Shown piece by piece: positions 17,172 to 63,897 of a DNA stretch of 64,000 nt. Under the pieces are notes generated by a model, which had not been told where the DNA came from, did not search any database, and saw nothing but the letters and a program-made list of their open reading frames with translations. Origin of the DNA: an uncultured delta proteobacterium (GTDB lineage Bacteria > Desulfobacterota > BSN033 > UBA1163). The DNA lies in contig CAVPSJ010000014.1 in NCBI GenBank assembly GCA_963708295.1, positions 160,001-224,000 of the forward strand, given 5' to 3'. Within the stretch, counting starts at the first letter, position 1, and the number at the start of each line of letters is the position of its first letter. The position numbers were made by a program, and so were the translations under genes.

Positions 17172-17174
17172 GCC

Positions 17175-34508: not shown

Positions 34509-35906
34509 ATGAAGGAGTACAAAGTTTTTCTTAGAGAGGATGAGATTCCGAAGCAATGGTACAATATCCAGGCAGACTTACCCAGCCCCCTGCAGCCGCC
34601 CCTCCACCCGGCAACAAAACAACCGATCGGTCCTCAAGACCTTGCCCCCGTTTTCCCCATGAATCTCATCGAGCAGGAGGTCAACACCAAGGATCGGTGG
34701 ATTGATATCCCCCAAGAGGTGATGGAAAAACTCCTCATCTGGAGGCCTACTCCTCTCCGTCGGGCTCATGGATTAGAAAAAGCCCTGGGAACACCCGCCA
34801 GGATTTATTACAAGGATGAAGGGGTGAGCCCTCCAGGAAGCCATAAGCCGAACACAGCCGTTGCACAGGCTTATTACAACAAGGTTTTTGGGATTAAACG
34901 GATTGCGACAGAAACCGGTGCAGGGCAATGGGGAAGCGCCCTTAGTTTTGCTTGCGGTCTCTTCGGCCTGGAGTGTAAGGTCTATATGGTCAGGATCAGT
35001 TATGACCAAAAACCTTATCGCCGCTTGATGATGAATACCTGGGGAGCCAACTGTGTTCCCAGTCCGAGCAAAGACACCAATGTGGGGAGAAAGATTCTGG
35101 AGGCGAACCCGGATTCTCCCGGAAGTCTCGGAATTGCCATCAGCGAGGCTGTTGAAGACGCGGTCACGTCAAAGGACACCCGATACTCCCTGGGAAGCGT
35201 TTTGAACCATGTCCTCATGCATCAAACCATCATCGGTCTTGAGGCGAAGAAGCAGTTGGAGAAATTTGGGGAGAAGAAAGTCGATATCGTCACCGGGTGT
35301 GCGGGCGGGGGAAGCAACTTTGGTGGCCTTGCCTTTCCTTTTGTCCTGGATAAGATCAATGGTGCCAAGATTACCATTATTCCCGCGGAACCCACTTCTT
35401 GCCCCACCATGACCCGGGCGCCGTTTGTCTATGACTTTGGGGATAACGTAGGAATGGCACCCATGGTTCCGATGCACAGTCTCGGACATTCCTTTATCCC
35501 GGCACCCATCCATGCGGGAGGACTTCGCTATCATGGGATGGCTCCCCTCGTCAGCCAATTGATCGTTGACGAACTCTTGGAGCCTCGGGCTTATAATCAA
35601 CTCGAGTGCTATGCCAATGCGGTCCTCTGGGCGAGGACCGAAGGGTTCATCCCCGCACCTGAGACCAGTCATGGTATCTCTGTCGTAGTTGAAGAAGCGA
35701 AGAAGGCGAAGCAAGAGGGAAAGGAAAAAGTCATCCTTCTCAACTGGAGCGGCCATGGCATCATGGACCTCGGTGGTTATGAATCTTATTTCAGCGGAAG
35801 GCTCGTTGACTACCCGCTACCACAGGAAGAGATGATGAAATCCCTGAAGGATATTGAAGGATGGCCGAAACCCAAGATTATGAAAATGGGTAAAGTCGTT
35901 GGATAA
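34509..35906 (+). CDS. trpB2: TrpB2 (stand-alone tryptophan synthase beta-like, PLP)
   Basis: [47 protein letters not shown]; no adjacent trpA. Confidence 0.93.
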
Positions 35907-35918
35907 GTGAGTGATGGG

Positions 35919-35955
35919 ATCCTACGGGCCTTTCGGGGCCCGTAGGATTTTTTAT
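35919..35955 (+). terminator. Rho-independent terminator
   Basis: ATCCTACGGGCC-TTTCGG-GGCCCGTAGGAT followed by a T run. Confidence 0.8.
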
Positions 35956-36065
35956 TAAATTCGCATCTGAAAACCCCTCCCTGTGCCTGCCTGCCGGTAG
36001 ACAGGGACGGGGGTTCTCTACTGAACGAGCTTGTACCCAATTCCTTAAAGCCTGCCGGAACACCG

Positions 36066-36335
36066 ATGATTGAAGAACATGATGCCCTGATCATCCGTTG
36101 CCCTCAGCTGGGTGGCGAGATTCCCTTCCGATATTGTCGAACCGTTAATGAACACCTGCCATGCCGGAGAATAATGGTCTGCTGGGAGTTTCGAATGGAG
36201 ATATCAAAATTCATAGGGGAACATTATTCCGTTGATCAAGTCCAATGCGCCTTGACACCTCCGACCAAGACAAGGCTTGATACCATTCTCGAACTCATCG
36301 AAAAGGCCAAGAAGATCAAAGAAGAAGGAGAGTGA
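36066..36335 (+). CDS. Small Cys-rich hypothetical protein
   Basis: CPQLGG..FRYC..PC..CW pattern; tightly coupled to the next gene. Confidence 0.65.
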   Translation: MIEEHDALIIRCPQLGGEIPFRYCRTVNEHLPCRRIMVCWEFRMEISKFIGEHYSVDQVQCALTPPTKTRLDTILELIEKAKKIKEEGE

Positions 36336-36339
36336 CAGG

Positions 36340-37434
36340 ATGCTGATCTCTGATCGATTAAGAAATATTAAGCCCTCGGGGGTGAGGCGAATCTTTGATT
36401 TGGCACGCCGGATGAAAGATCCGATCAATCTGAGCATCGGCGAACCCGATTTTGATATCCCGGAACCTCTTAAAGAGGAAGGCATTAAATGGATCAAAAA
36501 GGGGTTCAACAAATATACTCCCACCCAGGGCATCCCTGAATTGAGGGAAAAAATCGCCTCCCATTTAAAGAAGAAGGGGATCCATTTCGAGGAGGTCATG
36601 GTGACAGCGGGCGTGACCGGCGGTCTTCTCCTGGCCAGCCTTGCCCTGATCAACCCGGGGGATGAAGTCATCATCCCCGATCCGTTTTTTGTGATGTATG
36701 AGTATCAGGTTCTTCTTATGGGAGGGGTCCCTGTCTTCGTCGATACCTATCCTGATTTCCGACTGAAGGAGGAAGAATTCATCAAGAAATTATCGAAGAA
36801 GACGAAGTTCATTATCATCAACAGCCCGAATAACCCCACGGGGGCGATCTTTCCAAAGGAAGATCTGATGGGGGTGGTCCGGACCGCCCGGGAAAGAAAT
36901 CTTTTAATTCTCTCCGATGACATCTACGATAACTTTGTTTTCGACGCCCCTTCGTGCCCCTGTATCGGACAATTCTATGAGAACACGTTAACGTTGGGCG
37001 GATTCTCAAAGGGTTGGGGGATGACCGGTTGGAGACTGGGTTATGCGGCCGGCCCTAAGGAGATCCTCCAGCAGATGATCACCCTTCAGCAATATACATT
37101 CTCCAGTGTCAACTCCTTTGCTCAGAAAGCAGCGATCAAGGCCCTGGACTTCAATGTGGAGGATTACATTAAAGGCTATAAAAAGAAAAGAGATTTGATC
37201 TACCATGGGCTCAAAGAAAAGTTTAATGTCGAAAAGCCACAAGGCGCTTTTTATATCTTTCCGGAGGTCCCGGGAGGAAACGGAGAGGCCTTTGTAGAAA
37301 AAGCCATCGAACAGAATCTCTTTATTGTGCCGGGTAGCGTTTTTTCCAAGAGAAATACCCACGTCAGGATCTCATTTGCAGCATCGGATGAAACCCTTCA
37401 AAAAGGCATTGAGACCCTTAATCGAATCAGCTAA
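36340..37434 (+). CDS. Class I/II PLP aminotransferase (aspartate/aromatic type)
   Basis: IGEPDF, NSPNNPTG, SDDIY, GFSKGWGMTGWRLG. Confidence 0.92.
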   Translation: MLISDRLRNIKPSGVRRIFDLARRMKDPINLSIGEPDFDIPEPLKEEGIKWIKKGFNKYTPTQGIPELREKIASHLKKKGIHFEEVMVTAGVTGGLLLASLALINPGDEVIIPDPFFVMYEYQVLLMGGVPVFVDTYPDFRLKEEEFIKKLSKKTKFIIINSPNNPTGAIFPKEDLMGVVRTARERNLLILSDDIYDNFVFDAPSCPCIGQFYENTLTLGGFSKGWGMTGWRLGYAAGPKEILQQMITLQQYTFSSVNSFAQKAAIKALDFNVEDYIKGYKKKRDLIYHGLKEKFNVEKPQGAFYIFPEVPGGNGEAFVEKAIEQNLFIVPGSVFSKRNTHVRISFAASDETLQKGIETLNRIS

Positions 37435-37460
37435 AATTAAGGCAATAGATAAAATTCAGG

Positions 37461-37690
37461 TTTACCGCGGAGGCGCAGAGAACGCAAAGCATGTTTTGAT
37501 GAACCAATCCCGCGAGATGCGGTATTGGTTCATCAACGCTTCCCCTTCGGGACCAGGCCTCATCTATGTTTCAAGGCTATAGCGCTGCAAGAATGTAGTT
37601 TGACTTAGGAGCAGACTTTTTATTTGGCGGCTCCTCACCGTCAAATAGAAAAATCACTCCTCCGCGTTCTCGGCGGCTCTGCGGTGAGAT
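37461..37690. repeat. REP-like element, same family as 724-886
   Basis: TACCGCGGAGGCGCAGAG...CTCTGCGGTG; internal TTTATTTGGCGG..CCGTCAAATA hairpin. Confidence 0.7.
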
Positions 37691-37717
37691 TTCTGAGAAA
37701 GCGGAATAGAGGGATAG

Positions 37718-38257
37718 ATGCCAATCGATTTGCAGGCAGTGTGCGAAATCATTGAAAGGCACGGCTATCAAAAGGCTTCCCTGATCGGAATCCTCCAGGA
37801 TATTCAGGGGGAAATGAGCTACCTTCCTCGAAAGGCATTGGTTCAGGTAGGGAAAAGCCTCGATATTCCCCTGACTCACATTTACGAAGTTGCGACTTTC
37901 TATAAGGCCTTCAGTCTCGAGCCCAGGGGAAAACATACCATCCAGGTATGCCTGGGAACAGCCTGCCACGTCCGAGGAGGGTCCAGAGTTCTCGACTATC
38001 TTGAGAATCGACTGAAGGTAAAACCGGGAGGAACCACAAAAGACCTATCCTTTACCTTGGAAAGTGTCAACTGTCTGGGGGCCTGCGCGTTGGGACCCAT
38101 GATGGTGATTGATAAGAAATATTACGGAAAAATCAACACGAATAAGATTGAATCCATTCTGGAAAAATATCAGTCTCGAAATGAATCACCGCATCCAAAG
38201 TATCTCCGATCTTCGGAAGCTCCGCCAGTCCTTGAAAAAGTTAAGAGACAGGAATAG
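37718..38257 (+). CDS. NuoE/HydC-like [2Fe-2S] subunit
   Basis: [20 protein letters not shown]. Confidence 0.9.
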
Positions 38258-40036
38258 GCCGTCCGTCACAATCTGCGCAGGAACGGGCTGTCAGGCAACG
38301 GGTGCTTTAGAAGTGGTGGAGAAATTCAAACAAGAAATCTTAAGCCGGCATCTGGAGGAGAAAATTGATGTTCGCGCCAGCGGATGCCACGGTTTTTGCG
38401 AGCGAGGGCCCCTGGTGGTCATCCGGCCTGAGAAGATCTGCTACATGAATGTAGAGGCGACGGACGCGTCTCAGATTCTTGCGGACACGGTTCTCGATGG
38501 GAAAGTGATCGACCGCCTTCTCTACCAGGACCCCTTGACGAAGGAAAAGATCATTCACGAAGAGGAAATCCCATTTTACAAATTTCAGCAGAGGGTCGTT
38601 TTCGGGAGCAACGGAGAGATCGATCCAACTCGGATCGATGACTATATTGCGTTGGGCGGTTACCAGGGGTTGGAAAAGGTCTTATCCGAAAAAACCCCGG
38701 AAGAGGTTATTGAAACCATCAAACAATCCGGTCTGAGAGGCCGGGGGGGTGGAGGTTTTCCAACCGGCGCAAAATGGGAGTCTTGTCGAAAAGCACGGGG
38801 GAAGGAAAAGTTTGTCATCTGTAACGCCGATGAAGGAGACCCCGGCGCTTATATGGATCGGTCCCTGCTGGAGGGGAACCCGCACCGTGTGATTGAAGGA
38901 ATGCTCATCGGAGCTTATGCCATTGGTTCCGGGGAAGGGTACGTTTATGTGCGCAATGAGTATCCCCTCGCTGTTGCAAATCTCAGCCGCGCTATCGACC
39001 AGGCGAAGGATTACGGTCTGCTCGGAAAGAATATTCTGGGGTCGGGATTTACATTCGTCCTCAAGATCAGCCGCGGGGGAGGGGCCTTCGTGTGCGGCGA
39101 GTCAACCGCCCTCATGGCTTCTCTGGAGGGAAAAGTCGGAGAGCCTCGGGCCAAATATATTCACACCGTCGAGCACGGCCTCTGGGATCAACCCAGCAAC
39201 CTGAATAATGTTGAGACATGGGCCAATGTCCCCATCATCATCAACCGGGGTGTTGATTGGTATACCTCCATCGGGACAGAAGGGTCAAAGGGAACGAAGA
39301 TTTTCTCGCTGGTCGGAAAGATTAACAATACCGGTCTTGTCGAGGTCCCGATGGGAATCACGTTGCGCCAGATCGTTTACGATATCGGCGGTGGCATTCC
39401 GGGAAGCAAGCGCTTCAAGGCCATCCAGACAGGGGGGCCCTCCGGCGGCTGTATTCCGGAGACGCTTCTTGACCTTCCCATCGATTTCGATCGACTTCAG
39501 GATGCCGGATCCATGATGGGTTCGGGCGGCATGATCGTCATGGATGAAGACAATTGTATGGTGGACATGGCTCGATATTTTGTTGGGTTTCTTCAGGAGG
39601 AATCGTGCGGCAAATGTGTTCCCTGCCGGGAGGGACTTCAACAGATGGGCGAGATCCTTAACCGGATCTGCGAAGGGAACGGGGGGAGGGAGACATTCAA
39701 CTTCTGCAAAACCTCTCTCAGGTGATGGTTGACACATCGCTTTGCGGCCTCGGACTAACAGCACCCAACCCTGTCTTGTCAACCGTCCGATATTTCAGAG
39801 AGGAATACGAAGCCCATATTAGAGATAGAAAGTGCCCGGCCAAATACTGTAAAGGGCTTATCTCTCTTTCCATCGACCCTGAAAAGTGCACCGGCTGCGG
39901 AGCTTGTTTGAAGGTTTGTCCTGTGGATGCGATTGCCGGTGAGAAAAAGAAACCTCATCAGCTCGATGGAGATAAATGCGTAAAGTGCCGGGCCTGCTAC
40001 GAGGCCTGTATGTTTGATGCAGTACTAATTCAATAA
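38181..40036 (+). CDS. NuoF/HydB-like FMN/NADH subunit with N-terminal [2Fe-2S] and C-terminal 2x[4Fe-4S]; frameshift near 39690
   Basis: [58 protein letters not shown]. Confidence 0.9.
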
Positions 40037-40148
40037 CGATAGAGGTTGGAGGAGCATCCCGCTTCGCGGGATTTGAGGATAGAGGTTAATAATGTTTTGC
40101 CTCAAGCCTCAAGCGAAGCGCTCCTCGAACATCATTTGTGGTTCCGTT

Positions 40149-41465
40149 ATGATCACTTTAACCATTAACGGCAAAAAAGTAAGAGCCAAAAAAGATACGA
40201 CCCTTTTGGAAATCTGCCGGAAGATGTCCATCTCGATTCCGACGCTCTGTTATCATCCGGATCTCGGACCTCATGGTTCCTGCCGGTTTTGCACCGTGGA
40301 AGTATTCGAAAATGGAAAGGCCCGAATGGTGACCTCCTGCAATTATCCAGCTCGGGAGGGGATCAAAGTGGAAACTCATTCTGACAAGGTCATTCAGGCA
40401 CGACGAGTTCTGGTCGAGCTTCTCCTGGCACGATGTCCTCAGGTTCCCTTCGTTCAGAATTTCGCCCGGAAACTGGGTGTTGAAAAAACTCCCTTCAAGA
40501 CTGAAAATCCGGAAAACGATTGCATCCTTTGCGGTCTTTGTGTTCGCACCTGCCATGAAATCGTGGGGGCCAATGCCATCGGGTTTTCCAACAGAGGAAC
40601 TCAGAAAAAGATTGGGACACCTTTTGAGATCGATTCCGAACAGTGTCTGGCCTGCGGGGCCTGTGAATATATCTGCCCCACCGGAGCCGTTAAAATGGAG
40701 ATGAACCGGATCAGGAAAATCAAGCGATCCGACACCGGGACGCTGCGGTATTGCCGGTATATGCGCCTCGGATTACTCGATTTTATGGTCTGTTCGAACG
40801 GCTTCGAATGCTGGCGTTGCGAGGTGGACCAGGGGATGGAAGACCGGTTTGGAACCCACCCCGCCTTTGCCGTAAAACCAGCGAAAGACAAGCACCCTTT
40901 GCAGGTGAATGGATTTACCTTCTACCCCGAACTTTTTTACAGCGAAGAACATCTCTGGGCCAGACCCATGGACCGGAATATCAAGGTAGGACTCAACGAC
41001 CTAGTTTGCACCTTTGCCATGGAAGCAGATTCCATCCGCCTTCCTCCAGCGGGCACCGTTCTGAAGAAGAGACAGGTCCTTGCGGAAATTACGGCAACGG
41101 GGAAAAAGGCAAGAGTCCGTTCTCCTTTTACGGGAACGATTTCTGTCATCAACCACGACGTGGAAGAATCTCCGAACCTGGCCTGGAGGGATCCCTATGG
41201 CCGGGGATGGCTGCTCATCTTGCATCCTGATCCTCCGGATCAGATTTTGCAGCTTTATTCGGGTGAACCCGCAAAGACCTGGTTTACAAAACAGGCCACG
41301 AATTTGGCCACGCTTTTTATAAAATGGGCTCCCAAGCCCTCTAAAAAAGAGTCCCAGGATGGGCAGTTGATTCGAAAGATCGTCCGTGATCGCTGGGATC
41401 AGCTGACCGAGATCCTGCTGCATTCCAACGTGAAAAAAAGAGATGCTGAAAGAAGTTCAGGTTGA
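40149..41465 (+). CDS. NuoG/HydA N-terminal FeS module fused to a Cys4 motif and a GcvH-like domain
   Basis: IPTLC..GSCRFC..SC, CILCGLCVRTC, CLACGACEYICP; HLWAR..KVGL..SPFTG..DPYGRGWL. Confidence 0.8.
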   Translation: MITLTINGKKVRAKKDTTLLEICRKMSISIPTLCYHPDLGPHGSCRFCTVEVFENGKARMVTSCNYPAREGIKVETHSDKVIQARRVLVELLLARCPQVPFVQNFARKLGVEKTPFKTENPENDCILCGLCVRTCHEIVGANAIGFSNRGTQKKIGTPFEIDSEQCLACGACEYICPTGAVKMEMNRIRKIKRSDTGTLRYCRYMRLGLLDFMVCSNGFECWRCEVDQGMEDRFGTHPAFAVKPAKDKHPLQVNGFTFYPELFYSEEHLWARPMDRNIKVGLNDLVCTFAMEADSIRLPPAGTVLKKRQVLAEITATGKKARVRSPFTGTISVINHDVEESPNLAWRDPYGRGWLLILHPDPPDQILQLYSGEPAKTWFTKQATNLATLFIKWAPKPSKKESQDGQLIRKIVRDRWDQLTEILLHSNVKKRDAERSSG

Positions 41466-41565
41466 CAAGTAGGGCGAGAAGTATCATTCATACCTTGGTT
41501 GTCATCCCGAACTCGTTTCGGGATCTGGATTTGCAGTGTGAGGGACCCTTAAGAAGGGATTAGTC

Positions 41566-44500
41566 ATGTCAGATAAAGAACAAAGAGTAGTTCTTGGAAA
41601 CGAAGCGATTGCCAGAGGCGTGGTGGAGAGCGGGTGTCAATTTTTTGCGGCCTATCCCGGCACTCCCAGCTCGGAGATCCTCCCCGCGATTGTTCGTTTC
41701 AAAAAGGAAAACAATCTGGAGATCTATGTTGAATGGTCTACGAATGAGAAAGTCGCTTTTGAGAATGCGTTGGTGGCCTCTTATACAGGGAAACGAGCTG
41801 CCGTGGCCATGAAGCAGGTGGGGTTGAATGTCGCGACGGATCCCCTGATGAGCTCCGCCTATATCGGAACGATCGGAGGGTTTGTCATCATCAGTTGTGA
41901 CGATCCTGGGCCCTATTCTTCCCAGACCGAACAGGACACCCGGTTTATGGCCATGTTTGCGAAGGTCCCGGTTTTTGATCCTGCCAGTCCGAAAGAGGCC
42001 CAAGAGATGTTACCCATTGCCTTTGAGCTTTCCGAAAAATATCAGATTCCCGTTATCCTCCGTCCCGTCATGAGGGTCTCCCATGCCCAGCAAACCATCA
42101 CGTTCAACCCTATTCACAGAGTTGAAAGGAAAGCCGATTTTCAGCGCAATCCCCAGCGATGGAGCGCCACACCCAGATTTCGGTTTTTGCTCCATAAGCA
42201 GCTCAACGTGAAGCTTCAAAAAATTGCCGAAGAGTTCAGTTCCATGACCTCTCTCAATTTCGTCGAGCATGATCGGGAAAGAGCTTCTCTCGGAATCATC
42301 GCCGGAGGGATCGGTTATGCGATTGCCCGGGATATCGTCAATGAAATGGGCCTCCGGGAAGCGATTCCGATTCTCAAGATCGGGACTCCTTTCCCCTTTC
42401 CGAAAGAGATCGTAGAGGCCTTTATTAAGAAATGTGATCATGTGCTGATTCTCGAAGAAACGGAGCCGGTGATCGAGCTTCAAATACGTGACAAGTCGAA
42501 AGTCACCGGGAGATTGGACGGAAGGATTCCCAACGAAGGAGAAATGCTTCCCGAAGTCATTACCCAGGTGATCTCGGACCTATGTAAAAAGTTCTCCATT
42601 CCCGTAGGGGAGGTTCCTTCTTCAGGACCTCTTGAGAAGCTGGTGGCCGGGCTGGGCTTGCCCATTCGTCGACCGACGCTTTGTTCGGGATGTCCCCATC
42701 GGGCTTCTTTCTTTGCCATCAAGAAAGCTTTCCCGAATGGGATTTTCCCGAGTGACATCGGGTGTTACACCCTGGGGATGAATATGGAGTCTGTCGATAC
42801 CTGCCACGACATGGGAGCAGCCATCACCTTCGCCAGCGGTCTCTACCAGACTTTTCATCAGGATGGCAAAGAGATTCCCATCATCTCCACGATCGGAGAT
42901 TCAACGTTCTATCATTCCGGAGCTCCAGGACTCCTGAATTCCGTCTATAATGGCTCCCGTTTCATTCTTGTGATCCTCGACAACTCCATTACAGCCATGA
43001 CGGGTATGCAGCCGACCCCGGAATCCGGAACCACGGCGGATGGCCATCCGGGCAAAACCCTTTCTCTCGAAGAACTGGTGAAAGGATGTGGCGTCAAATA
43101 CATTCGCGTCGTCAATCCTTACGACATCAAGGGCATGATTCTCGAGGCGAGAAAGGCCTACGAGTATACCAAACAGCACGAGGGGGGGATGGCCGTACTG
43201 ATTTCCCGTTATCCCTGCATCACCTATCAAAAAGAGATCCTCAAGGTTAAGCCTAACAAGGTTGATATCCGCCATATGCCTCCTCCGGAGAAAGATCTTT
43301 CCCAGGTGAAAAGCGGGGCCATGCCGCAATCGCTTTTGCCTGTGTATCAAGACAGAATCGCACCCTGCACCGGGGCCTGTCCAATCCAGGTCGATGCCAG
43401 GGGCTATATCGATCTCATATCAAAAGGAAAGTTTGATGAAGCGCTCGCTCTTGTTCGTCAGCAGAACCCATTCCCTGCCATCACGGGCAGACTCTGCGCC
43501 CGGCCGTGCGAGAAGATCTGCCGAAGGGGGGATGTGGATCAACCGATTGCAATCGACCTTTTGAAACGGTTCGTTGCAGAACGGGAAAACGCCCCTGTCA
43601 TTTAATATCACGCCAGGCCCTGAAAAGGCAGCAAAGGTGGCCATTGTGGGATCTGGCCCCACAGGGCTGATGGCTGCTTATGATTTGCGACGCCATGGCT
43701 ATCCGGTGACCGTCTTTGAGGCCCTTCCTCTACCCGGCGGGACCATGGCCGTGGGGACAGGGCGATTTCGACTGCCGGAGGAGGTACTCAATCGAGAGAT
43801 CGATATCGTCAAGAAACTTGGAGCGAATTTCAAATTCAATACGCGGATTGGTGGCGAGACCTCTCTCAACAGCCTCAGGGCTCAAGGGTTCAAGGCCATC
43901 CTTCTGGCCACAGGAGCTCACAAAGCCAAAAAGTTGAATCTTCCAGGACACGAGGCCAAAGGTGTCGTGGATACCCTGACGTTTCTTAAGAAAGTTACCC
44001 TGAAACAAAAACTTCCTGCTTTTTCGAGGGTGGTGGTGCTGGGTGGAAGTGACCGGGCCCTGGATGCAGCACGGACAGCGCTGAGACTTGGAGCGAAATC
44101 GGTGACGGTTCTATTCAGCCGTTCGCAAAGGGAAATGCCTGCCGAGGCTTCGGAAATCGCTGAGGCAGAGAGAGAGGGAGTGTCCTTTCAGTTTTTCTCG
44201 GTTCCGTCAAAGATTACAGCTTCCCAGGGTAAAGCGATCGGGATCTCCTTCAGAAAAGCCATTCTCAGCGCTCCCACAAGCCTCGGGAGAACAAGGGTGC
44301 AATCTTTACAAGGCCATGAGAAAAAATTGAAGGTTGATCTGGTCATTACCTCACCCACCCTATGTTCCGGATCTTTCTTACTTTGGAGAAGTCGTTCCGC
44401 AAACTGCCTGGAATACAATCCAGGTCGACCCGCTGACATTAGCTACGTCTGTGAAGGGAGTCTTTGCTGGAGGGGATGCAGTCACAGGCCCCAAGAATTT

Positions 44501-45092: not shown

Positions 45093-45127
45093 AGCTTCAC
45101 TGGCCATAGGCCAGTGCTTAGAAGTCC

Positions 45128-53418: not shown

Positions 53419-53497
53419 CTCCTATTCAGTCCTCCTTGCTCTTGAAGTTAATCCGCAATTCGCAATCCGCATTCCGCAATTGACTTCCATCCTTCAG

Positions 53498-53986: not shown

Positions 53987-54023
53987 TCTTTTCCCTCGCC
54001 CCAATCTCCACAGACTCATCGGT

Positions 54024-54239: not shown

Positions 54240-54300
54240 TTTCATAACAATATCTGGATAAATAGGGTGCACGGAGAATCCCCGGGCACCCTATGGTTCT

Positions 54301-55323: not shown

Positions 55324-55364
55324 TTTCTCTAGACCTCCTTTCTAAGTCTGATGAGCCATTCGCC

Positions 55365-55396
55365 GTATACTGTATACAATAAACCCGATTTGTCAA
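55365..55396 (-). promoter_or_regulatory. Promoter (TTGACA) with GntR-like operator ATTGTATACAGTATAC
   Basis: Identical 16-mer to 15377-15392; 42 bp upstream of dctP. Confidence 0.7.
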
Positions 55397-55442
55397 GCTT
55401 TTTCTTGAGTGCTCCCACCTCCTTTTTTTGATTTAAATCGCA

Positions 55443-55961: not shown

Positions 55962-56052
55962 CTGTCACTCCAAAGAAAATGGCTAAGGGTTCAAGGGTTA
56001 CGGGCCAAATCTCTTCTGTTCCGCATTCCACATTCTGCATTCCGCATTCGAT

Positions 56053-57345
56053 TCAGATGCCCCGGTTGTCAAAAACTCGTTTGCTCTTCCGCTCCGATCT
56101 CGGAAGGCTTCCGTAGTTCACGATCTCCACTTTGCCGCTGACCAGAATCTGTTTCTTAATTTCCTCTTCAATCGATCTGACCAGGACGGGATCTTCCGCC
56201 GAAAGACCCCCTTCCGTCCTTTCGACCTTGATCGTCATGTAGTCCTTACCGTCTTCTTTCTGGTCAAGGTGAATCTGGTATTCACTCCCCACGCCCTTGG
56301 TGTTGGATAGGATATGATCAATCTGGCCGGGGTAGATGTTGACGGCCCGGATAATAAACATATCGTCCGAACGGCCCAACAATCGGTCATGCATCGGAAG
56401 TACGGAGCCACAAGAGCACCGCTTCGGAATGAGTCTGGTGAGGTCCCGGGTCCGGTAGCGGACAAGAGGGGCAGCTTCTTTCCGAAGGGTCGTGATCACC
56501 ATTTCTCCCGTCTCTCCGGGTGGAACGGGAAGAAGCGTTTCAGGGTCGAGAAGTTCAAGAATGTAGTAGTCTGCCCAGTAATGGATGCCCTCATGATAGA
56601 TGCAATCAAGGCCGGTGCCGGGGCCGTAGAGTTCGGTCAATCCGGGAATATCGAAGACGTGCTCCACGCCCAGAAGCTCCTTCATCTTCTTTCTCTGGGA
56701 ATCGCTCGAACGCTCAGAGCCCATGATCACTTTTTTGAGAGCGATCTTATTCCTCAGGCTCCTCTTTTCGATTTCCTCTGCCATGAGGATGCCCATCGAG
56801 GCGGTGCAGCATAAGACGGTCGATTGGAAGTCTTCCAGGAACTGACATTGCATGTCGATATTGCCCGGACCCACGGGAATGGCCATCGCCCCCAAACGTT
56901 CTACCCCTAGCTGAAAACCAACTCCCGCCGTCCATACGCCGTATCCTACTGCAATCTGGACCCGGTCCTTGGTCGTCAATCCAGCCATTTCATAACAGCG
57001 GGCAAACATGTTGGCCCAGTCCTGAATATCCTTCTGTGTGTAGCAGAGGACCTTTCGTTTTCCGGTCGTTCCCGAGGAAGCATGGATTCGAACAATCTTC
57101 TCAAAAGGGATGGATCTCAGCGGAAAAGGGTATCCCTCCTGAAGGTCTTTCGAGGTGGTGAAGGGAAGTCTAGAGATATCCTTGAGAGATTTGACTTGAC
57201 GGGGCTTCACTCCCGCCTCCTCAAATCGTTTTCGATAGAATTCGGAATTCTTATAAACATGGTTTATCGTCCATTGAAGCCCTTCCGTCTGAACCCGCTT
57301 CAGCTCCCTCTCTGTCCTGATTTTAGGCATGAAGGTTCGTCCCAT
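56053..57345 (-). CDS. Phenylacetate-CoA ligase family (aryl/indole-acetate-CoA ligase)
   Basis: RIHASSGTTG, YGVWTAG, RYRTRDLT, GRSDDMFIIRAVN. Confidence 0.9.
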   Translation of the reverse strand: MGRTFMPKIRTERELKRVQTEGLQWTINHVYKNSEFYRKRFEEAGVKPRQVKSLKDISRLPFTTSKDLQEGYPFPLRSIPFEKIVRIHASSGTTGKRKVLCYTQKDIQDWANMFARCYEMAGLTTKDRVQIAVGYGVWTAGVGFQLGVERLGAMAIPVGPGNIDMQCQFLEDFQSTVLCCTASMGILMAEEIEKRSLRNKIALKKVIMGSERSSDSQRKKMKELLGVEHVFDIPGLTELYGPGTGLDCIYHEGIHYWADYYILELLDPETLLPVPPGETGEMVITTLRKEAAPLVRYRTRDLTRLIPKRCSCGSVLPMHDRLLGRSDDMFIIRAVNIYPGQIDHILSNTKGVGSEYQIHLDQKEDGKDYMTIKVERTEGGLSAEDPVLVRSIEEEIKKQILVSGKVEIVNYGSLPRSERKSKRVFDNRGI

Positions 57346-57429
57346 GAGTTATCCCCCGACTGTCTTATTCTTCGAACGCTTATGAATGTGCTTATAAAAA
57401 ATATCGGTTATTGACGATGGCCATAATAC

Positions 57430-57508
57430 CGTCATTCCGGTGGAAACCGGAATCCAGAACGTGATGAAAGATGAAGTCTCCTGGACTCCGGCTTTCGCCG
57501 GAGTGACG
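57430..57508. repeat. REP pair GTCATTCCG..GGAATCCAG / CTGGACTCCG..CGGAGTGAC
   Basis: Inverted REP doublet; related singlets at ~13873, ~41500, ~63963. Confidence 0.7.
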
Positions 57509-57568
57509 AGTGAATGCTCTCGTGGATTTATATTTTATAGGAAACCCTTCTTATCCTCTATGACCTGT

Positions 57569-59302
57569 TTATACCCTCCTCAAAGACTCTCTGAGCTTTC
57601 GGGTTGCCTCCTCGTCAAGCGCCAGGGTTTTGGGATGGAGGATGACCCCATAATCCTCCATGGCCTTTTCAAGAGTCACATATCCTTCGACCACATCGCG
57701 CTTTACCCCTTCAGGTTCACGGTCCAGCGGATTTCCATAGCCTCCTCCACCGGCGGCATCGATGGTCACGACATCACCGGGTTTGAGCTGCGTTAGCCCG
57801 AAAGGATTTCCGGGCGCCCCGTTTACCAGAAACTGTGCTCTCGCTCCGGGTTTGCCGCCGTAGAGTCCCTCCGGAGGATGGATGTGCCTTCCCGCCTGTA
57901 TCCCTAAGTTTACAGGCGGAAGAGGGGCATACTGGTCATCGGGCACTCTAAAAACTTCTCTTTGCCCAATTCCTCCTTTCATCCTGCCCGGGCCCCCCGA
58001 ATCGGGAAGGAGTTCCCTGTTTTCCACAAGGAGGGGCGTGTCGCTTTCGAAAATCTCGATCGGCGTATTCGCACCGTTCGCAGGGAAGATGTAGACGTAA
58101 TTTCCATCGCTGACGGAGCTCGCTCCCATTCCGCCGCCCCGGATGACCACGGAATGCCATGGCCTTCCGTCATTCCTTCTCCCGTAGAAGACGTTCATCT
58201 GGGCAGGCGTGCCCCCGCTTGCAGCAATCACCTTGTTCGGTGCGACGTTGGAGAGGGCTCTGTAAATGATCTCCGTGATGTAATGCCCGATCACGAGCCG
58301 GGCCGCCACGGCCGCAGGAAATTTGCAGTGGACCACCGTCCCCTCCGGGGCCTTCAATGTGACGGGTCTTGCGCAGCCGTCATTGTTGGGGATATCCGGC
58401 CCAAACATGCTCTTGACGCCATGAACACATACGCATAGGTGAAGTTGTAGACCACGTTGCCGCCCCAGTGGACCTGAGGAGAAGACCCGTCGAGGTCCAC
58501 CGATGATATCGCTTCCTTTTACTTCAACGGCGGCTTTAATCAGCACATCCTGCTTGCCCCTTCATCTGTTCGATGATGCCTTCCGCGCGGTAAATGCCGT
58601 CGGGAATCTTCTCGATCTCCTCTCTCATGCTCTTCTCTGTTCTGCCGATGACCTCATCTGCGAGGTCATCCAGGTTCTCCAAATCGTTTTCCTGAGCATC
58701 TGGCCAATCTTCTCCGAGCACACATGATTGGCTGCGATCTGGGAGCGGATATCTCCGATCACCTCATCGGGCGTGCGCACATTCCAGCGAATCATGTCCA
58801 GCACTGAATGATTGAGCACCCCTCCGTCATAGAGCTTCACGAGGGGAATGAAGAGTCCTTCCTCGAAGACATCATGGTTGTCCGAGGAGACGCGACCGCC
58901 GATATCCGAATGATGAAACACGCAGGCCGTGAAGGCCACTACCTTATTTTTGTAGAAGATCGGGCTCATCACGCAGACATCGTTCAGATGGCCGGCCAGG
59001 GCCCAGGGGTCGTTGGTGATGAAGATATCGCCGGGTTTGTAAGCTTCCAAAGGGAGTTTGGCGACGAGATTCTTGATTCCGAGGGCCATGGCTCCGGATT
59101 GGCCGGGAGTTGCAAATGACCCTTGTGCAAGTTCCCGACCTTTCTGATCCGTGAACATGCAGGTGTAGTCGTGGGCGTCCCTCAACAGGCTTGAAAAGGC
59201 CGTTCGGGCAACGGAGCTATCGGACTCATCCACGATGGAGATCAATCTTCGCCAGAGTATTTCCAATGTGATTGGATCGAATACGCGTCCCCTCCGTCCC
59301 AT
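57569..59302 (-). CDS. Hydantoinase B/oxoprolinase subunit (several frameshifts 58430-58700)
   Basis: DPITLEI, TNDPW..GHLND, HHSDIGG, EEGLFIP, PNNDG, NTPIE, GGGGYGNP. Confidence 0.85.
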
Positions 59303-59316
59303 CTCATTCCTCCTGT

Positions 59317-59499
59317 CAGGTTGTTAAGAAACGCCCATCTGCGGCGTATCTCTCATCCTTCGTCGTTGCGGAGTACTGCTTAGTACACCTCAAGCCGGCT
59401 CACCCACTCACCGGCGTGGCAAGAAGTCGCTCCTTATTCGTTGCGACGCCACTCTCAGGATTTCGAGAGCCTTGCATCTGGGCATTTCTTAGCAACCTG
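59317..59499. mobile_element. MITE-like element copy 3
   Basis: CAGGTTGTTAAGAAACGCCCATCTGC...GGGCATTTCTTAGCAACCTG; core nearly identical to the 21413 copy. Confidence 0.7.
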
Positions 59500-59637
59500 A
59501 AGAAATTGTTTTCTCAACACCGCATCCAAACCAGCACACTCGGTGAACAAAAATCGTTCCCAGAATAAAACACTTCAAGATGCGCTTCGTAAAGGTCTGG
59601 AAGTGCCCTCAACCGCCTTTCCACTGCAGTCACTGGG

Positions 59638-61835
59638 TTAACGCTTCGATTTTCCCCGGGCCGAAGTCTTGGGTTTTTCCCTCGTGGATGGGGGCCGACT
59701 TTTTTGACCTTGCCCCATGGGAGCGGGCTCTGGTGTTCTCGAAATATCAATCCACAGAAATCCAAAGTCATCCACTGAAACCGAGGCGTTCTCGCCGACG
59801 ATGACGGTCGATTCTTTCTCTTCAATGATCGCAGGGCCTTTAAACTTTGCTTTCGGAAAAAGTTTGTATCGATCGTAGACCGTGTAGGGGATGAAATCCC
59901 TGGCCACAGGAGAGTAAGCCTTGCGCTTTCCTTTGATCGCCCGATCAGGAGACTTCCCCTTGCTTTCAAGTTTCGGGAACTTGAATCAAGCCGTTCAGGA
60001 AGACTCGCTCTCACCTTGAAGTTGATGAATTCCACTTCCGAGTCAGGATAGGTTCTTCCGTAGAGCTTTTCATAGACTTGATCAAAGCGCCGGCCGGACT
60101 CCTTCTTTCTTCATCCTGGCGAAGTCTCCTCCGGCGACCGGGACGTTGGTTTCCGATCCCTGCCCGACAAACCGCATATCCAGGGATCTCTCGAATCTGA
60201 ATCTCTTTTTCGCTGCCTGCTTTCTTGAGAGATTCTTGTCGCCTCCGCTTCCAGCCCCGGAAGATCTTTTCAACTTCATTAAAATGGGCAGCCGCCAGGG
60301 ACACCTTATGGCTCCTCACAAGGTCAAAGGCTCGAGGAGCAGTGAAGAAGCCGAGGGCCGAATCCGACTCCTGCATTCGGCGGAACGAGCAAGCTCGGCG
60401 CTCCCAGTTTCTTGCGCAAGGCCATAAGCATGCACCGGCCCTGCTCCGCCGAAAGCCACGACCGTGACGATCTTGGGGTTTCCGCCCTTTTCGGCAATGT
60501 GCGTTTTCGCTGCAGCGGCCATGGTCTCGTTGATGAGATCATGGATTCCCCAGATGGCCTGAATAAAGGAGACCCCCAGAGGCTTGGCGATCTTTTCCGT
60601 CGACGCCACGTCTGGCAGCCTCCTTGTCGAGCTTCATTTCGCCGCCCAGGAAGTAGTTCTCGTCGAGATAGCCCAATAAGAGGTCGGCATCGGTGACGCA
60701 TGGGTCTTGTCCCTCCATCTCGCGTAACAGATGGGCCCGGGGTCTGCGCCCGAGCTTTCCGGCCCCACCTGAAGTGTTCCCAGTTCTGCTCACTTTGGCA
60801 ATGCTCCCGCCTCCCGCTCCGATCTCCATCAAGTCAACCACGGGCACCTGAATGGTCAGGCCGCTCCCCTTCATGAACCGTTGGACCCGGCCGACCTCGA
60901 AGGTCGGGCACGACACCGGCCACCCCTCGTTGAATCAGGCAGGACTTGGCGGTTGTCCCTCCCATGTCAAAACAGAACATTTCTGAAAGGCTGAAGAGTT
61001 TGCCATAGTACTGGCCCGCGATCACTGCCGCGGTCGGACCGGATTCGATGATCCTAACGGGAAACTGGGCGGCCGTATCAACGGACGTCACCCCGCCGCT
61101 TGAAAGCATGATGAAAAGCTTTCCTTTGCAACCAACGGACTCCAGCCTACCGGACAACTTGGAAAGGTATCTTTCGGTCAGAGGCTTGACATAGGCGTTG
61201 GTCACTGTGGTGCTGGTCCTCTCATACTCCCTGATCTGCGGTAAAACCTGATAGGAGATGGAGATCGATATTCCGGGAGCCTCCTTCTCGATGATCTCTT
61301 TGATCATGAGTTCGTGGGTTGGGTTTTCAAAGGAATTGATGAGACAGACGGCGATCGATTCTACGCCCATGTTGAGGAGAGACCGGACCCGTTGACTCGC
61401 CTCCCCGGGATCGAGGGGCTTTAGGACCGTCCCGTCGCTCCGAATCCGTTCGTCCACTTCGACGCGGAATTGTCTCGGGATCAAGGGTTTGGGGAATTCA
61501 GCGAAAACATCGTAAGGCGCATACCGTATCCCCCTCCCGATTTCCAAAACATCCTTGAAGCCCTTTGTGGTGATGAGACCTGTTTTGGCGCCCTTTCTCT
61601 CGATAATAGAGTTGATGACGAGGGTTGTCCCATGGATCACTTCGTCCATCTTTTCTACAAAGGCCGGTGTGTTTTTCTCCATTTCTCTGATGCCATGCTC
61701 CACGGCATCGGAGGGATCTTTAGGAGTGGTCAGACACTTGTAGATCTTCAGCTCTCCGGTTTGATCGTTCAGCAGGACGAAGTCGGTGAAGGTGCCGCCG
61801 ATGTCGCAGCCTAATCGATAGAGGTTTCCAGCCAT
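59638..61835 (-). CDS. Hydantoinase A/oxoprolinase ATP-dependent subunit (multiple frameshifts 59980-60910)
   Basis: DIGGTFTD, HGTT, EYERTST, ESGP, DMGGTT, IGAGGGS, VTDAD, FGGAGP, GPAIIEE. Confidence 0.85.
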
Positions 61836-61899
61836 GGATGCCTCCTGAATTCAAATTCGAAATCCGAATATTGACACCCCTGCCTTCGCGCAGGGTTCC

Positions 61900-62161
61900 T
61901 CCTTCTTGGATCCCTGGAGGTGAGATTATAGAACAGACCTGCATTCAAGGCATTAGAAAAAGTTTTTCGACGAGAGAGGATAGCCCGTTTGGGGAGTCCT
62001 GTTGTTCCTGAAGTATACCCGCGGTCAAGAAGGCGAGGGCAGAGTCGATTGGCGCGGAGGGTTAACTGCCGGTAGGTGAATGGACGATCTTCAAAGATTA
62101 GAGTTCTCTTGCGAGGTTGAAGAGAGTTCCATTTTCTTATCCAATCACCGACGTTGATCAC
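61900..62161 (-). pseudogene. Internally deleted remnant of an AMP-forming acyl-CoA ligase
   Basis: N-terminus (..FTYRQL..RANRL) abuts YTSGTTGLPK directly, then truncates. Confidence 0.7.
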
Positions 62162-62268
62162 GGGACCATTCAAGTATGGAATGCTGGAATACCGGGGAGA
62201 TGGGATAAGGGGTTTAAAGAATTTCCTCATTTATGGTCCAATCATCCGTCGTTCCGATATTCCGTGTT

Positions 62269-63897
62269 TTAAAATATGGAGGGTTCTTTAAATTCTCCGT
62301 AGATACCCTTAAAGACCTTCGTCATCTCGCCCACCGTTGCATAGGCCTTACAGCATTCCAGGAGATAGGGCATGACGTTCTTTTCAGCTCTTGCAGCGCT
62401 CTCGAGGTCTTTCAGCAACTGTGAAACCTTTCGATTGTCCCTTTCGCGCTTCACCTCCCGGAGCCGCCGGACTTGCTCTTCTGCAGATCCCAATCGGTAT
62501 TCATGGAGATCAACCTCCATCTCCTCTCCTTCGGTGTATTTGTTTACTCCGACTTTGATCAGCTCTCCCTTTTGGACCCCTTTCTCAAACTCGTAGGCCT
62601 GCCTTGCAACTTCTTTCTGAACGTAGCCGGTCTCTACGGCCTTGATCATCCCTCCCAGGTCATCGACCCGCTTCATTTCCTCAACGATTTTTTCCTCCAT
62701 CTGCTTCGTCAAGGTTTCGATAAAGTAGGAACCCGCCAGAGGATCGACCGTGTCCCTTAACCCGATCTCTTCCATCAGAATCTGGAATGTCCTGAGGGAG
62801 AGGAGGGCTGCCCGGGGGGTTGGAATCGTATAAGCTTCGTCAAAGGAGCACAGGGCCGTCGTTTGAGCGCCCCCTAAAGCCGCCGCCAGGGCATAGCAAG
62901 CACCTCGAATGATATTGTTTTCGGGCTGCGCTTTGGTCATCCCATATCCGCCGCCTCCGAAGATTCCCCGCAAGAGAAGGGAGCGATTGTCCTTGGCCCC
63001 GTAGCGCTCCTTCAGATTGCTTGCCCAGAGTTTCCTTGCCGCGCGGAACTTAGCCACCTGTTCCCAAAGGTTTCCGAAGACATTAAGGTTAAAAGTAAAG
63101 CCCCGGACAAAATCGTCAATGCGATGGCCCCGGCGCAAAACTTCCTCGATATAGGCATTGGCTATCTGGAAGGCGTAGGCAATTTCCTGAGCTGGAGAAC
63201 AACCCGATTCGCGAATGTGATAACCACAAACACTGACAGGGTTGGTTCGGGGGAGTTCCTTCATCGCATATTCGATCGTATCGCCGATGAGCCGCACGGC
63301 GGGTTTTGCTGGAAAGATCCACGCCCCCCGTCCGATCATCTCTTTGAGAATATCATTCTGAGGAGTCGCGCTCACCCGGTCTTTCTTGAATCCGTATTTT
63401 TCGGCGGTCGCCTGGAACATGGCCAGCATGATGCTCGCTACCGCATTGATCGTCAGCCCGGCGCCAATTCGGTCCAGAGGGATGTCCTGGAAAGCGACTT
63501 CAAAGTCTCTCAGCGAATCCACCGCCATCCCCACTCTTCCCACTTCCCCTTCCGCCAGCGGGTCGTCGGAATCGAGACCCATTTGTGTGGGAAGATCGAA
63601 GGCGACATTCAGACCGGTCTGGCCGTGGGAGATCATCAGTTTGAAACGCTCGTTGGTCTCTTCGGGTGTTCCGAAACCCGTATACTGCCGAGTGGTCCAC
63701 TCCCGACTCCGGTACCCGAGAGAATGGATTCCCCGGGTGTAAGGATACTCGCCTGGAAGAGCCAAGTCCTTGTCTGGGTCAAAACCGATCGCTTCTAAGT
63801 CCTTCCTCGTATAGAGAGGCTTGACGTGGATGCCGGACTGGAGGATCACATCCTGAACCTCATCTTTTTCATTTTTTATATATTTTGCAACACCCAT
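62269..63897 (-). CDS. B12-dependent acyl-CoA mutase, large (substrate-binding) subunit
   Basis: PGEYPYTRG, RQYTGFG, AFDLPTQMG, QNDILKE, GYHIRE, DPLAGSY; no B12-binding domain. Confidence 0.92.
   Translation of the reverse strand: MGVAKYIKNEKDEVQDVILQSGIHVKPLYTRKDLEAIGFDPDKDLALPGEYPYTRGIHSLGYRSREWTTRQYTGFGTPEETNERFKLMISHGQTGLNVAFDLPTQMGLDSDDPLAEGEVGRVGMAVDSLRDFEVAFQDIPLDRIGAGLTINAVASIMLAMFQATAEKYGFKKDRVSATPQNDILKEMIGRGAWIFPAKPAVRLIGDTIEYAMKELPRTNPVSVCGYHIRESGCSPAQEIAYAFQIANAYIEEVLRRGHRIDDFVRGFTFNLNVFGNLWEQVAKFRAARKLWASNLKERYGAKDNRSLLLRGIFGGGGYGMTKAQPENNIIRGACYALAAALGGAQTTALCSFDEAYTIPTPRAALLSLRTFQILMEEIGLRDTVDPLAGSYFIETLTKQMEEKIVEEMKRVDDLGGMIKAVETGYVQKEVARQAYEFEKGVQKGELIKVGVNKYTEGEEMEVDLHEYRLGSAEEQVRRLREVKRERDNRKVSQLLKDLESAARAEKNVMPYLLECCKAYATVGEMTKVFKGIYGEFKEPSIF

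Follow-up and report, generated by a model that had tools for sequence, protein, structure and literature searches.

A candidate iaa-type indoleacetate cluster adjoining a TrpB2-indolepyruvate oxidoreductase operon in a Thermodesulfobacteriota genome

The stretch of DNA analysed here, referred to as the window, comprises 64,000 nucleotides (positions 160001-224000 of contig C14 of the source genome, G000) within a 370-kb contig of a 4.95-Mb genome, which is assembled in 20 contigs and estimated to be 91.5% complete. Between positions 34509 and 63897 it holds a plus-strand operon encoding TrpB2, an aminotransferase and an indolepyruvate oxidoreductase (IOR), as well as a minus-strand block with enzyme families of anaerobic indoleacetate (iaa) degradation. 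The strand layout confirms the two convergent blocks of the original prediction, made from the letters of the window, and all gene families it had assigned on the two strands were recovered in place by Pfam and NCBIfam scans of the open reading frames (ORFs) in this interval. The minus-strand genes run on past the window, and the adjoining region (C14:223001-243000, or L001) is given in window-equivalent coordinates, 63001-83000. Among the genomes used for comparison, G010 is a congener, G148 belongs to the same family and another genus, G021 to a different family of the same class, and G048, assembled in one contig, represents another family.

The minus-strand block and its continuation

Biochemical work on the iaa pathway is confined to denitrifiers, and its steps were reportedly laid out by Ebenau-Jehle in 2012. 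In the Aromatoleum operon, as given in the accessible text of PMC8360864, IaaB is the ligase, IaaL the phenylsuccinyl-CoA transferase, IaaGH the mutase, IaaF a decarboxylating benzylmalonyl-CoA dehydrogenase, IaaM a binding protein, IaaQ and IaaR regulators and IaaD a truncated protein. According to the same text, the YEG of other acyl-CoA dehydrogenases is replaced by GGG in IaaF orthologues, all of which are encoded in iaa-type clusters. Pathway details given below draw on that text and on PMC5214803.

Congruent with such a pathway, the minus strand encodes a three-subunit molybdenum (Mo) hydroxylase of the XDH family at 47599-52047 (Mo subunit 47599-49959, FeS subunit 50414-50878, FAD subunit 51076-52047), a candidate indoleacetyl-CoA hydroxylase. 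The closest solved structure to its Mo subunit is 4-hydroxybenzoyl-CoA reductase (4-HBCR), an enzyme acting on a CoA ester; the scores stay below the 4-HBCR equivalog cut-offs (alpha 648 vs 994 bits, beta 113 vs 404) and the FAD subunit is without a Cys loop. Next to it, on the same strand, family matches identify a TRAP transporter (DctM, DctQ and DctP, 52111-55323), the place of which is taken by an ABC transporter in the congener, and a Pfam match a universal stress protein (55443-55961). The PaaK-family aryl-acetate CoA ligase that follows (56053-57345, IaaB-like) reaches 403 bits against a PaaK equivalog cut-off of 646, and ligases 63-67% identical to it are found in iaa-like loci of Actinomycetota metagenome-assembled genomes (MAGs) and in G048.

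The ATP-dependent lactamase is represented by a HydB-type beta subunit (hydantoinase B; 57569-59311, with two ORFs at 57569-59302) and a HydA-type alpha subunit (hydantoinase A; 59600-61835, with at least four ORFs at 59514-61835), both on the minus strand. In the congener, where both proteins are intact, their top-scoring model is caprolactamase, at a score under its cut-off, and the matches include no 5-oxoprolinase model. The large subunit of a B12-dependent acyl-CoA mutase (62269-63897, minus strand, IaaG-like; Pfam MM_CoA_mutase) scores 454 bits on NF006944, where the cut-off is 876, and reaches a domain-level model only, while a separate ORF at 64221-64622 (window-equivalent, minus strand) encodes the B12-binding small subunit; this two-subunit enzyme is distinct from methylmalonyl-CoA mutase (MCM). 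Measured against the orthologue of G010, paralogues of the mutase in G000 show 35-45% identity and mutases of iaa-like loci in other lineages 57-74%. The original prediction had named a grouping with housekeeping enzymes as what would count against it; mutase, ligase and lactamase instead lie below the MCM, PaaK and caprolactamase cut-offs, and 5-oxoprolinase is not matched.

Between the mutase and hydA genes sits a 139-residue remnant of an AMP-binding enzyme (61811-62230, minus strand) with the motif TSGTTGLPK. It is absent in G010, skipped by one metagenome contig, and comparison ruled out that it is a copy of the cluster ligase. By description, it recalls the truncated iaaD of Aromatoleum, as far as the available part of PMC8360864 characterizes that gene.

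Past the window, the minus strand continues with a GntR/FCD regulator (64729-65481, Pfam), divergent from which two plus-strand genes encode a family III CoA-transferase (65533-66828; CoA_transf_3, E = 3.9e-75), of the IaaL type, and an IaaF-like acyl-CoA dehydrogenase (66885-68045). In most loci examined, these two adjoin. The dehydrogenase carries the GGG motif, in the context LLYGGGTHEV, and G368, G369 and G370 are invariant in nine of nine aligned homologues of 65-87% identity. Two of the 120 homologues listed, at 64-65% identity, are named benzylmalonyl-CoA dehydrogenase by their source. Hence the B12-binding subunit, GntR regulator, CoA transferase and acyl-CoA dehydrogenase anticipated beyond position 64000 are indeed present; neither the thiolase, likewise anticipated, nor enoyl-CoA hydratase or electron-transfer flavoprotein (ETF) genes were found 3' of the dehydrogenase gene in L001.

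Instead, an ORF-poor segment of about 2 kb follows (L001 5046-7062, window-equivalent 68046-70062), at a position where relatives have ETF genes. It holds a second dispersed repeat of about 340 nucleotides and a short FixX-like open frame, and tblastn recovered no ETF remnants there at E < 1e-5. Further on lie a tadA-like deaminase gene, two tRNA genes, the SRP RNA, dnaX and recR.

With the full enzyme set in place, including the GGG-motif dehydrogenase just past the window, the minus-strand block and its continuation very probably form an iaa-type anaerobic indoleacetate cluster. The families of the minus strand agree with those that the original prediction had drawn from the iaa pathway, and its synteny is conserved in the congener. 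As to completion of the pathway, a BamA/Oah gene elsewhere in G000 scores 552 bits, above its cut-off of 464, so that the organism can be expected to handle benzoyl-CoA. The cluster proteins are putative orthologues of the characterised Aromatoleum Iaa proteins; among their NCBIfam matches, there is no Iaa-specific model.

A palindrome of 15 bp, TTGTATACAGTATAC (7-1-7), lies directly 3' of a TTGACA box at 15378-15392 and is a candidate GntR/FCD operator; a sequence match reveals a second copy upstream of dctP, at 55365-55379. Its 10-mer core has only three exact occurrences in the 4.95-Mb genome, all at promoter positions of this region: one in the divergent promoter of gntR and the CoA-transferase gene, one ahead of dctP and one ahead of a second Mo enzyme (15530). 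The full 15-mer is also present in a Desulfarculaceae iaa-like locus (L091) and in genome G008, 3.5 kb upstream of trpB2, where it precedes an OYE/FadH-like gene. The GntR/FCD regulator probably controls the iaa operons via the predicted operator TGTATACAGTATACA. The OYE/FadH-like gene of G008 encodes an Fe-S flavoenzyme of 663 residues (L098 3252-5444) and ends about 1.4 kb upstream of trpB2.

The second XDH-family enzyme, preceded by the palindrome, is of the 4-HBCR type and comprises FAD, FeS and Mo subunits (15530-19454, plus strand). Its FAD subunit has a four-Cys insertion loop, C-x15-C-x7-C-x8-C; in 4-HBCR, the corresponding loop of the beta subunit provides the Cys ligands of a [4Fe-4S] cluster. 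Despite this loop, the enzyme remains below both 4-HBCR cut-offs (628 vs 994 and 208 vs 404 bits). Mo enzymes that share this Cys loop adjoin iaa genes in G010, G048 and G301, and we speculate that the second Mo enzyme is a candidate reductive deaminase of 2-aminobenzoyl-CoA.

The TrpB2-IOR operon and the state of the reading frames

The plus-strand operon opens with trpB2 (34509-35906), encoding a TrpB-like PLP enzyme that scores 708 bits on NF009057 (cut-off 366) and passes TIGR01415 as well. There is no adjoining trpA, and this gene is the sole TrpB-type gene found in G000. TrpB2 synthesises tryptophan, and stand-alone enzymes of this kind have been proposed to salvage indole. A class I/II aminotransferase of unassigned specificity follows (36277-37434; Pfam, NCBIfam). 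A Phe-rich mini-ORF in the trpB2 leader was considered as a feature and dropped, as it is not conserved in G010, and Rfam gave no match in the window at gathering thresholds, that is, no riboswitch or leader was detected.

Downstream, three genes resemble the BfuA, BfuB and BfuC architecture of electron-bifurcating Bfu complexes, for which the accessible text of PMC9304861 also lists an uncharacterised Por-Bfu. These encode a NuoE-like 2Fe-2S subunit (BfuC-like, 37718-38257, Pfam), a NuoF-like FMN/NADH subunit with a C-terminal ferredoxin domain (BfuB-like, 38109-40036, read from 38109 to 39725 and then in another frame to 40036), and a 2Fe-2S/4Fe-4S protein (BfuA-like, 40092-41465, Pfam), whose N-terminus resembles HydA, HoxU and NuoG and which is fused to a GcvH-like domain. 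In this domain, ITATGKKA replaces the usual ESVKA lipoylation context. The same fusion occurs in G021, at 61% identity (L102 11139-12455).

The two IOR genes complete the operon: iorA at 41566-45092, in three frames, and iorB at 45271-45900, which matches IOR_beta models. The N-terminal part of IorA scores 613 bits on TIGR03336 over profile positions 2-547 of 595, the frame-broken 679-residue ORF having been scored against a cut-off of 650.9. A GltD-like insertion of about 470 residues (Fer4_20 and Pyr_redox_2), placed ahead of the terminal ferredoxin domain, expands the protein to an IorA::GltD subunit of about 1,170 residues. Such subunits are widespread: in a search with the inserted part, 92 of the 120 homologues listed are 1,158-1,231 residues long and carry POR_N/TPP as well as Fer4_20/Pyr_redox_2 domains, and their source names them only 'FAD-dependent oxidoreductase' or 'IorA'. 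In G021 all genes are intact, in the order trpB2, nuoE, nuoF, FeS-GcvH, a 1,170-residue IorA with the GltD-like insert, and iorB. Thus BfuC-, BfuB- and BfuA-like genes are encoded together with a partner enzyme, as in Bfu systems, and the intact set of G021 repeats this.

As judged from the domains, the plus-strand block is predicted to encode an unusual IOR, built of IorA::GltD, IorB and a Bfu-like NuoE/NuoF/FeS module. Given the fusion and this module, the enzyme is presumably NAD(P)(H)- as well as ferredoxin-linked. The families read from the letters as NuoEF-FeS and IorAB consequently stand; IorA is however not a plain IorA but the GltD-like fusion, and the frame breaks in nuoF and iorA, like those in hydA and hydB, had gone unnoticed. 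The dedicated electron-transfer module that had been proposed appears as a Bfu-like set in G000 and G021 but is missing from the congener: G010 lacks nuoE, nuoF, FeS-GcvH and a 1.4-kb stretch of iorA (43351-44762), and a 725-residue IorA lies directly 3' of its aminotransferase gene.

The interruptions of the reading frames differ from gene to gene. Compared with G010, hydA has 11 short indels (1-2 bp) between 59980 and 60906, and hydB four 1-bp indels relative to the syntenic region. The nuoF gene is broken once, near 39692-39704 beside a G run, and iorA twice, at about 43574-43659 and about 44355, the latter close to short C runs and a run of A. In hydA and hydB, the substitutions within broken segments nevertheless retain a third-position bias (for example 7/4/48 and 8/2/42 per 100 codons), like that of the intact ligase and mutase. 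Relatives have intact orthologues, with a HydA of 743 and a HydB of 600 residues in G010, and a NuoF of 623 and an IorA of 1,170 residues in G021.

Contigs from four public short-read metagenome runs, which bear on covered sites with a listed indel, show the frame-restoring state at nine sites (58416, 58503, 58553, 58691, 60599, 60707, 60722, 60783 and 62229). At 58416, 58503 and 60783 this applies to all covering contigs in the runs that report the indel, whereas at 58691 and 60599 the majority agree with the state of the window. Being only 90-99% alike, the contigs may stem from related strains; no sequencing run contained at least half of the words of the stretch, the best share being 0.25. 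Taken together, codon-position statistics, intact relatives, homopolymer runs at or near two of the breaks and the metagenome contigs point to consensus errors of the assembly rather than decay, and hydA, hydB, nuoF and iorA are probably functional genes. Further genes of G000 are found in several frames or with internal stops, including mutase, ETF-alpha, NuoE and XDH paralogues on C2, C12, C13, C17 and C18, suggesting that indel errors are common in the assembly.

A dispersed repeat some 200 nucleotides long has one of its copies inserted between hydA and hydB, at 59310-59520; it gives 82 blastn hits in the genome, its own match included. Other copies are at 21451-21587 and 46289-46346. The word depth of the repeat reaches 9534 and is very high in four metagenome runs, and an internal stretch of 61 nucleotides is skipped in contigs of three runs.

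Linkage of the two blocks across genomes and the tryptophan genes

The two blocks adjoin in both G000 and G010. In G148, TrpB2-aminotransferase-IorAB is located 13-14 kb upstream of the CoA-transferase and IaaF genes, and in G008 CoA-transferase, IaaF and ETF genes lie about 12 kb downstream of iorB on one contig, while in loci L021 and L033 IorAB is 6-7 kb from the CoA-transferase-IaaF pair. A different order is seen in G048, within about 31 kb: one strand carries the XDH-family enzyme, ligase, HydBA, mutase, FixC-like protein, ETF, IaaF (59% identical) and CoA-transferase, and the other strand the second Mo enzyme, a CoxE-like protein, TrpB2 and IorA::GltD. The genes of G048 recur in G301, in yet another order. 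A trp operon about 11 kb from IorA::GltD in G048 was not used, since it is not conserved in G301.

To place these observations, 301 genomes of the phylum were searched for the IaaF marker, present in 41 of them, and for TrpB2, where 60 matches lie outside those listed. Among the matches listed, six genomes have IaaF and TrpB2 on one contig, at a distance of 8-31 kb in five (G000, G148, G048, G156 and G301) and of 200 kb in the remaining one (G111). The five represent two families only. We also collected 80 IaaF-centred loci by a profile search of contigs with the IaaF alignment and inspected neighbours within 10 kb; all are MAG loci, with no Aromatoleum, Ferroglobus or Desulfatiglans record among them. 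IorAB-like genes occur at most 10 kb from the IaaF-like gene in seven of the 80, from at least four lineages, and the IOR-bearing loci include MAGs of Actinomycetota, Thermoleophilia and Myxococcota. Because TrpB2 and IOR are found beside iaa genes again in a second family, and in another gene order, the physical association is not a matter of chance but a real one, shared by two families.

No TrpB1 was matched in G000. By comparison, all 14 control genomes match each of five Pfam families of tryptophan and shikimate synthesis, and 13 of the 14 exceed the TrpB1 model cut-off. Among 31 relatives, G000 included, TrpA is above cut-off in 14 and chorismate synthase in 20, and TrpB2 was found in 25. 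These losses are patchy among the relatives and extend to genomes estimated to be 95-100% complete. Canonical TrpB1 is on the other hand kept in all four genomes checked of family f21 (G048, G156, G301 and G326), as well as in G010 and G003, where it stands beside TrpA. Despite this TrpB1, TrpB2-IOR is located next to iaa genes in G048, G156, G301 and G010. With the canonical enzyme also present, TrpB2 is an additional enzyme in the f21 genomes and not the housekeeping synthase.

Proposed pathway, rival explanations and known systems

Aggregated, the gene content, GGG motif, synteny and recurrent linkage fit a role of the island in indole-ring catabolism in a strict anaerobe of the Thermodesulfobacteriota that degrades aromatics, with the plus-strand block as a catabolic funnel. 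We hold this reading to be evenly poised between right and wrong, and we infer all substrates named here, as well as the direction of flux in the plus-strand block. In its first part (window 47599-63897 and about 4 kb beyond), where the steps follow family assignment and the published pathway, the TRAP transporter would take up indoleacetate and the PaaK-type ligase would convert it to indoleacetyl-CoA. The XDH-family Mo enzyme may then form 2-oxoindoleacetyl-CoA, the ring of which would be opened to (2-aminophenyl)succinyl-CoA by the ATP-dependent HydAB lactamase. After a shift of the CoA by the family III CoA-transferase, the B12 mutase would yield (2-aminobenzyl)malonyl-CoA, and the GGG-motif dehydrogenase would oxidize and decarboxylate this to 2-aminocinnamoyl-CoA. 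Enzymes of beta-oxidation and of the benzoyl-CoA pathway, from other parts of the genome, would complete the route. In the second part, a separately regulated and physically linked operon (34509-45900), TrpB2 would join indole and serine to tryptophan, the aminotransferase would turn tryptophan into indolepyruvate, and IOR would generate indoleacetyl-CoA. As this product equals the first CoA intermediate of the first part, tryptophan and indole could enter without the ligase.

A stronger form of this proposal, in which TrpB2 would be the committed step of an unrecognised O2-independent mineralisation of indole and tryptophan, IorA::GltD, IorB, NuoE, NuoF and FeS-GcvH would form an NAD(P)-linked Bfu/Nfn-type IOR supercomplex, and the second Mo enzyme would reductively deaminate 2-aminobenzoyl-CoA, appears doubtful to us.

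Several observations weigh against the catabolic funnel. In none of the 80 loci was TrpB2 found at 10 kb or less from IaaF, and it is present in 209 of the 301 sampled genomes, the IaaF marker in only 41. The linkage to iaa genes suggests that indole and tryptophan are fed into the pathway, but TrpB2 as a catabolic indole entry, as the original prediction cast it, stays at the level of inference. TrpB2-aminotransferase-IorAB is kept in G003, where the best match to the iaa-type mutase is 45% identical, which is the paralogue level; G008 and G011 have their hydAB-mutase part on a different contig. A search for the palindrome ahead of nuoE, the aminotransferase gene and trpB2 found no copy. No match in G000, at 91.5% completeness, was obtained for TrpA, IGPS, TrpD, chorismate-binding enzymes and chorismate synthase. 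Furthermore, in G000 the IaaF-like gene stands without the neighbouring ETF that G010, G048 and most loci have, and hydA, hydB, nuoF and iorA are frame-broken as assembled. Finally, the likeness to the Aromatoleum Iaa proteins is drawn from families and published descriptions instead of sequence alignment.

The most serious rival, which we consider possible though on the unlikely side, reverses the plus-strand block: TrpB2 would make tryptophan from scavenged indole and, driven by NAD(P)H and ferredoxin, the Bfu-type IOR would reductively carboxylate indoleacetyl-CoA, perhaps along with other arylacetyl-CoAs, to a 2-oxo acid that the aminotransferase converts to an amino acid. Adjacency would then arise from the use of indoleacetyl-CoA by both blocks. 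Anabolic IOR is known from methanogens and rumen bacteria, and a reductive, pyruvate-forming role has been proposed for the analogous Por-Bfu, according to the available text of PMC9304861. The five unmatched tryptophan and shikimate families, found in all controls, and the recurrence of such losses in relatives that largely retain TrpB2 fit this direction, as do the conservation of the plus-strand block in G003 without iaa genes and its position outside the predicted GntR regulon. Yet the joint absence of the trp genes, usually a single operon, could reflect one gap in an incomplete MAG; TrpB2-IOR persists despite TrpB1 in G048, G156, G301, G326, G010 and G003; and the block of G010 has no NuoEF/GltD module. 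That the minus-strand block might instead act on another lactam or aryl-succinate-type substrate, for example a different N-heterocyclic acid, is quite improbable. The block would then share the enzyme logic of the iaa pathway (CoA activation, Mo hydroxylation, ATP-dependent lactam opening, B12 rearrangement, decarboxylating dehydrogenase). All family scores are below equivalog cut-offs, and iaa-like loci have two very different HydAB types, one 66-100% identical to the G010 query (8 of 80 loci) and one 30-37% identical (6 of 80), G048 having the divergent type. However, the GGG-motif dehydrogenase subclass is reported in the accessible text of PMC8360864 from iaa-type clusters only, the full iaa complement matches, and the recurrent neighbours, IOR and TrpB2, are both indole-related.

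Two further explanations would deprive the island of its function or its unity. Decay of the pathway in G000, with hydA, hydB, iorA and nuoF as true pseudogenes and the ETF lost, we judge very improbable: it would account for the 11 and four indels, the two breaks in iorA and the one in nuoF, the repeat inserted between hydA and hydB, and the repeat-bearing, ORF-poor 2 kb at the site 3' of the IaaF-like gene where no ETF is found, but not for a third-position bias that is unchanged in the broken segments. The nuoF break and the second of iorA are at or near homopolymer runs, other genes of the assembly are also in pieces, and contigs, possibly from related strains, restore the frame at 58416, 58503 and 60783. 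Most improbable of all is that the blocks are neighbours by accident, the plus-strand one being an operon for IOR or for aromatic amino-acid fermentation in general and metabolically unconnected to the iaa genes. Three further IorAB sets in G000, the lack of an operator common to the plus-strand block and the iaa promoters, and the non-adjacent hydAB-mutase part of G008 and G011 are compatible with mere neighbourhood; against it stand the recurrence in a second family in different gene order, the linkage with CoA-transferase-IaaF in G008, G148, L021 and L033, and the IOR-like genes within iaa-like loci of Actinomycetota, Thermoleophilia and Myxococcota MAGs.

The closest known systems to the cluster are the iaa operons of Aromatoleum aromaticum and Azoarcus evansii and those predicted in the strict anaerobes Desulfatiglans anilini, NaphS2, Desulfocarbo indianensis and Ferroglobus placidus. 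In the accessible text of PMC8360864, which cites Schuhle 2016, iaa-type clusters of Desulfatiglans anilini, NaphS2, Desulfocarbo and Ferroglobus are already in print, with an ETF pair alongside. Common to these operons and ours, as far as they are described there, are the XDH-family Mo enzyme, family III CoA-transferase and two-subunit B12 mutase, together with the GGG-motif decarboxylating dehydrogenase, a solute-binding protein and a regulator. A candidate CoA ligase and, in broken frames, a putative HydAB-type lactamase agree with them at the family level. The ETF pair is retained in G010 and G048 and is not beside the IaaF-like gene of G000. G000 differs from the known operons in the attached TrpB2-aminotransferase-IOR operon and in a second, 4-HBCR-type Mo enzyme under a common candidate operator, and from G010 in TRAP rather than ABC-type uptake. 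Clusters of this kind in strict anaerobes are consequently already described, and the addition made here is the linked TrpB2-IOR operon.

The plus-strand block resembles Por-Bfu, to the extent that the available text of PMC9304861 describes it, in its NuoE-like BfuC, NuoF-like BfuB with extra FeS domains, HydA/NuoG-like BfuA and TPP-dependent 2-oxoacid oxidoreductase, and NfnABC, from the portion accessible of PMC11829005, in its GltD-like NADPH module. In contrast to both systems as described there, an IOR serves as the oxidoreductase, IorA and not BfuA contains the GltD-like module, BfuA carries a GcvH-like domain, and the operon begins with TrpB2; compared with IorAB, IorA has the extra GltD-like insertion. 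As with stand-alone TrpB2, there is no adjoining trpA, and in G010, G003 and G048 it coexists with TrpB1, but here trpB2 heads an IOR operon and, in two families, has iaa genes beside it. In open-access literature, supplements lying outside the search, no description of TrpB2-IOR-iaa islands or of an IOR-type Bfu was found, although the supplement of PMC9304861 may list Bfu partners. The combined arrangement claimed as undescribed is accordingly new as far as that literature goes, while its iaa part in strict anaerobes, going by the text available of PMC8360864, is not.

As a set, the island and its counterpart in the second family offer a testable gene set through which strict anaerobes of wetlands and sediments would channel indole, tryptophan and indoleacetate into the benzoyl-CoA pathway. 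An oxindole/isatin route of anaerobic indole degradation is known; to our knowledge, the complete anaerobic degradation of indole or tryptophan is known in outline only, with no genes assigned. The analysis further brings forward the IorA::GltD fusion, widespread but unstudied, that goes with a Bfu-like module, as well as a predicted regulon marked by the candidate GntR operator and a recurrent 4-HBCR-type Mo enzyme beside iaa genes. If the anabolic explanation were true, the island would show how lineages without shikimate and tryptophan genes make tryptophan from indole and auxin.

Around the island, an adenine-deaminase-like amidohydrolase gene adjoins the trpB2-IOR operon both in the window (32385-34115, 576 residues) and in G021 (L102 17827-19560, 577 residues), the two proteins being only 31% identical. 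Upstream of the island, at 29548-30219, lies a PF04199 'putative cyclase' gene, of a family that includes kynurenine formamidase and isatin hydrolase. On the far side, 12-18 kb past the window (L001 12340-17940, window-equivalent 75340-80940), a Por-Bfu-like cluster encodes, in this order, the alpha subunit of a 2-oxoacid:ferredoxin oxidoreductase, which begins with a ferredoxin domain, the beta subunit, a NuoE-like protein, an intact NuoF-like protein of 623 residues and a BfuA-like FeS protein.

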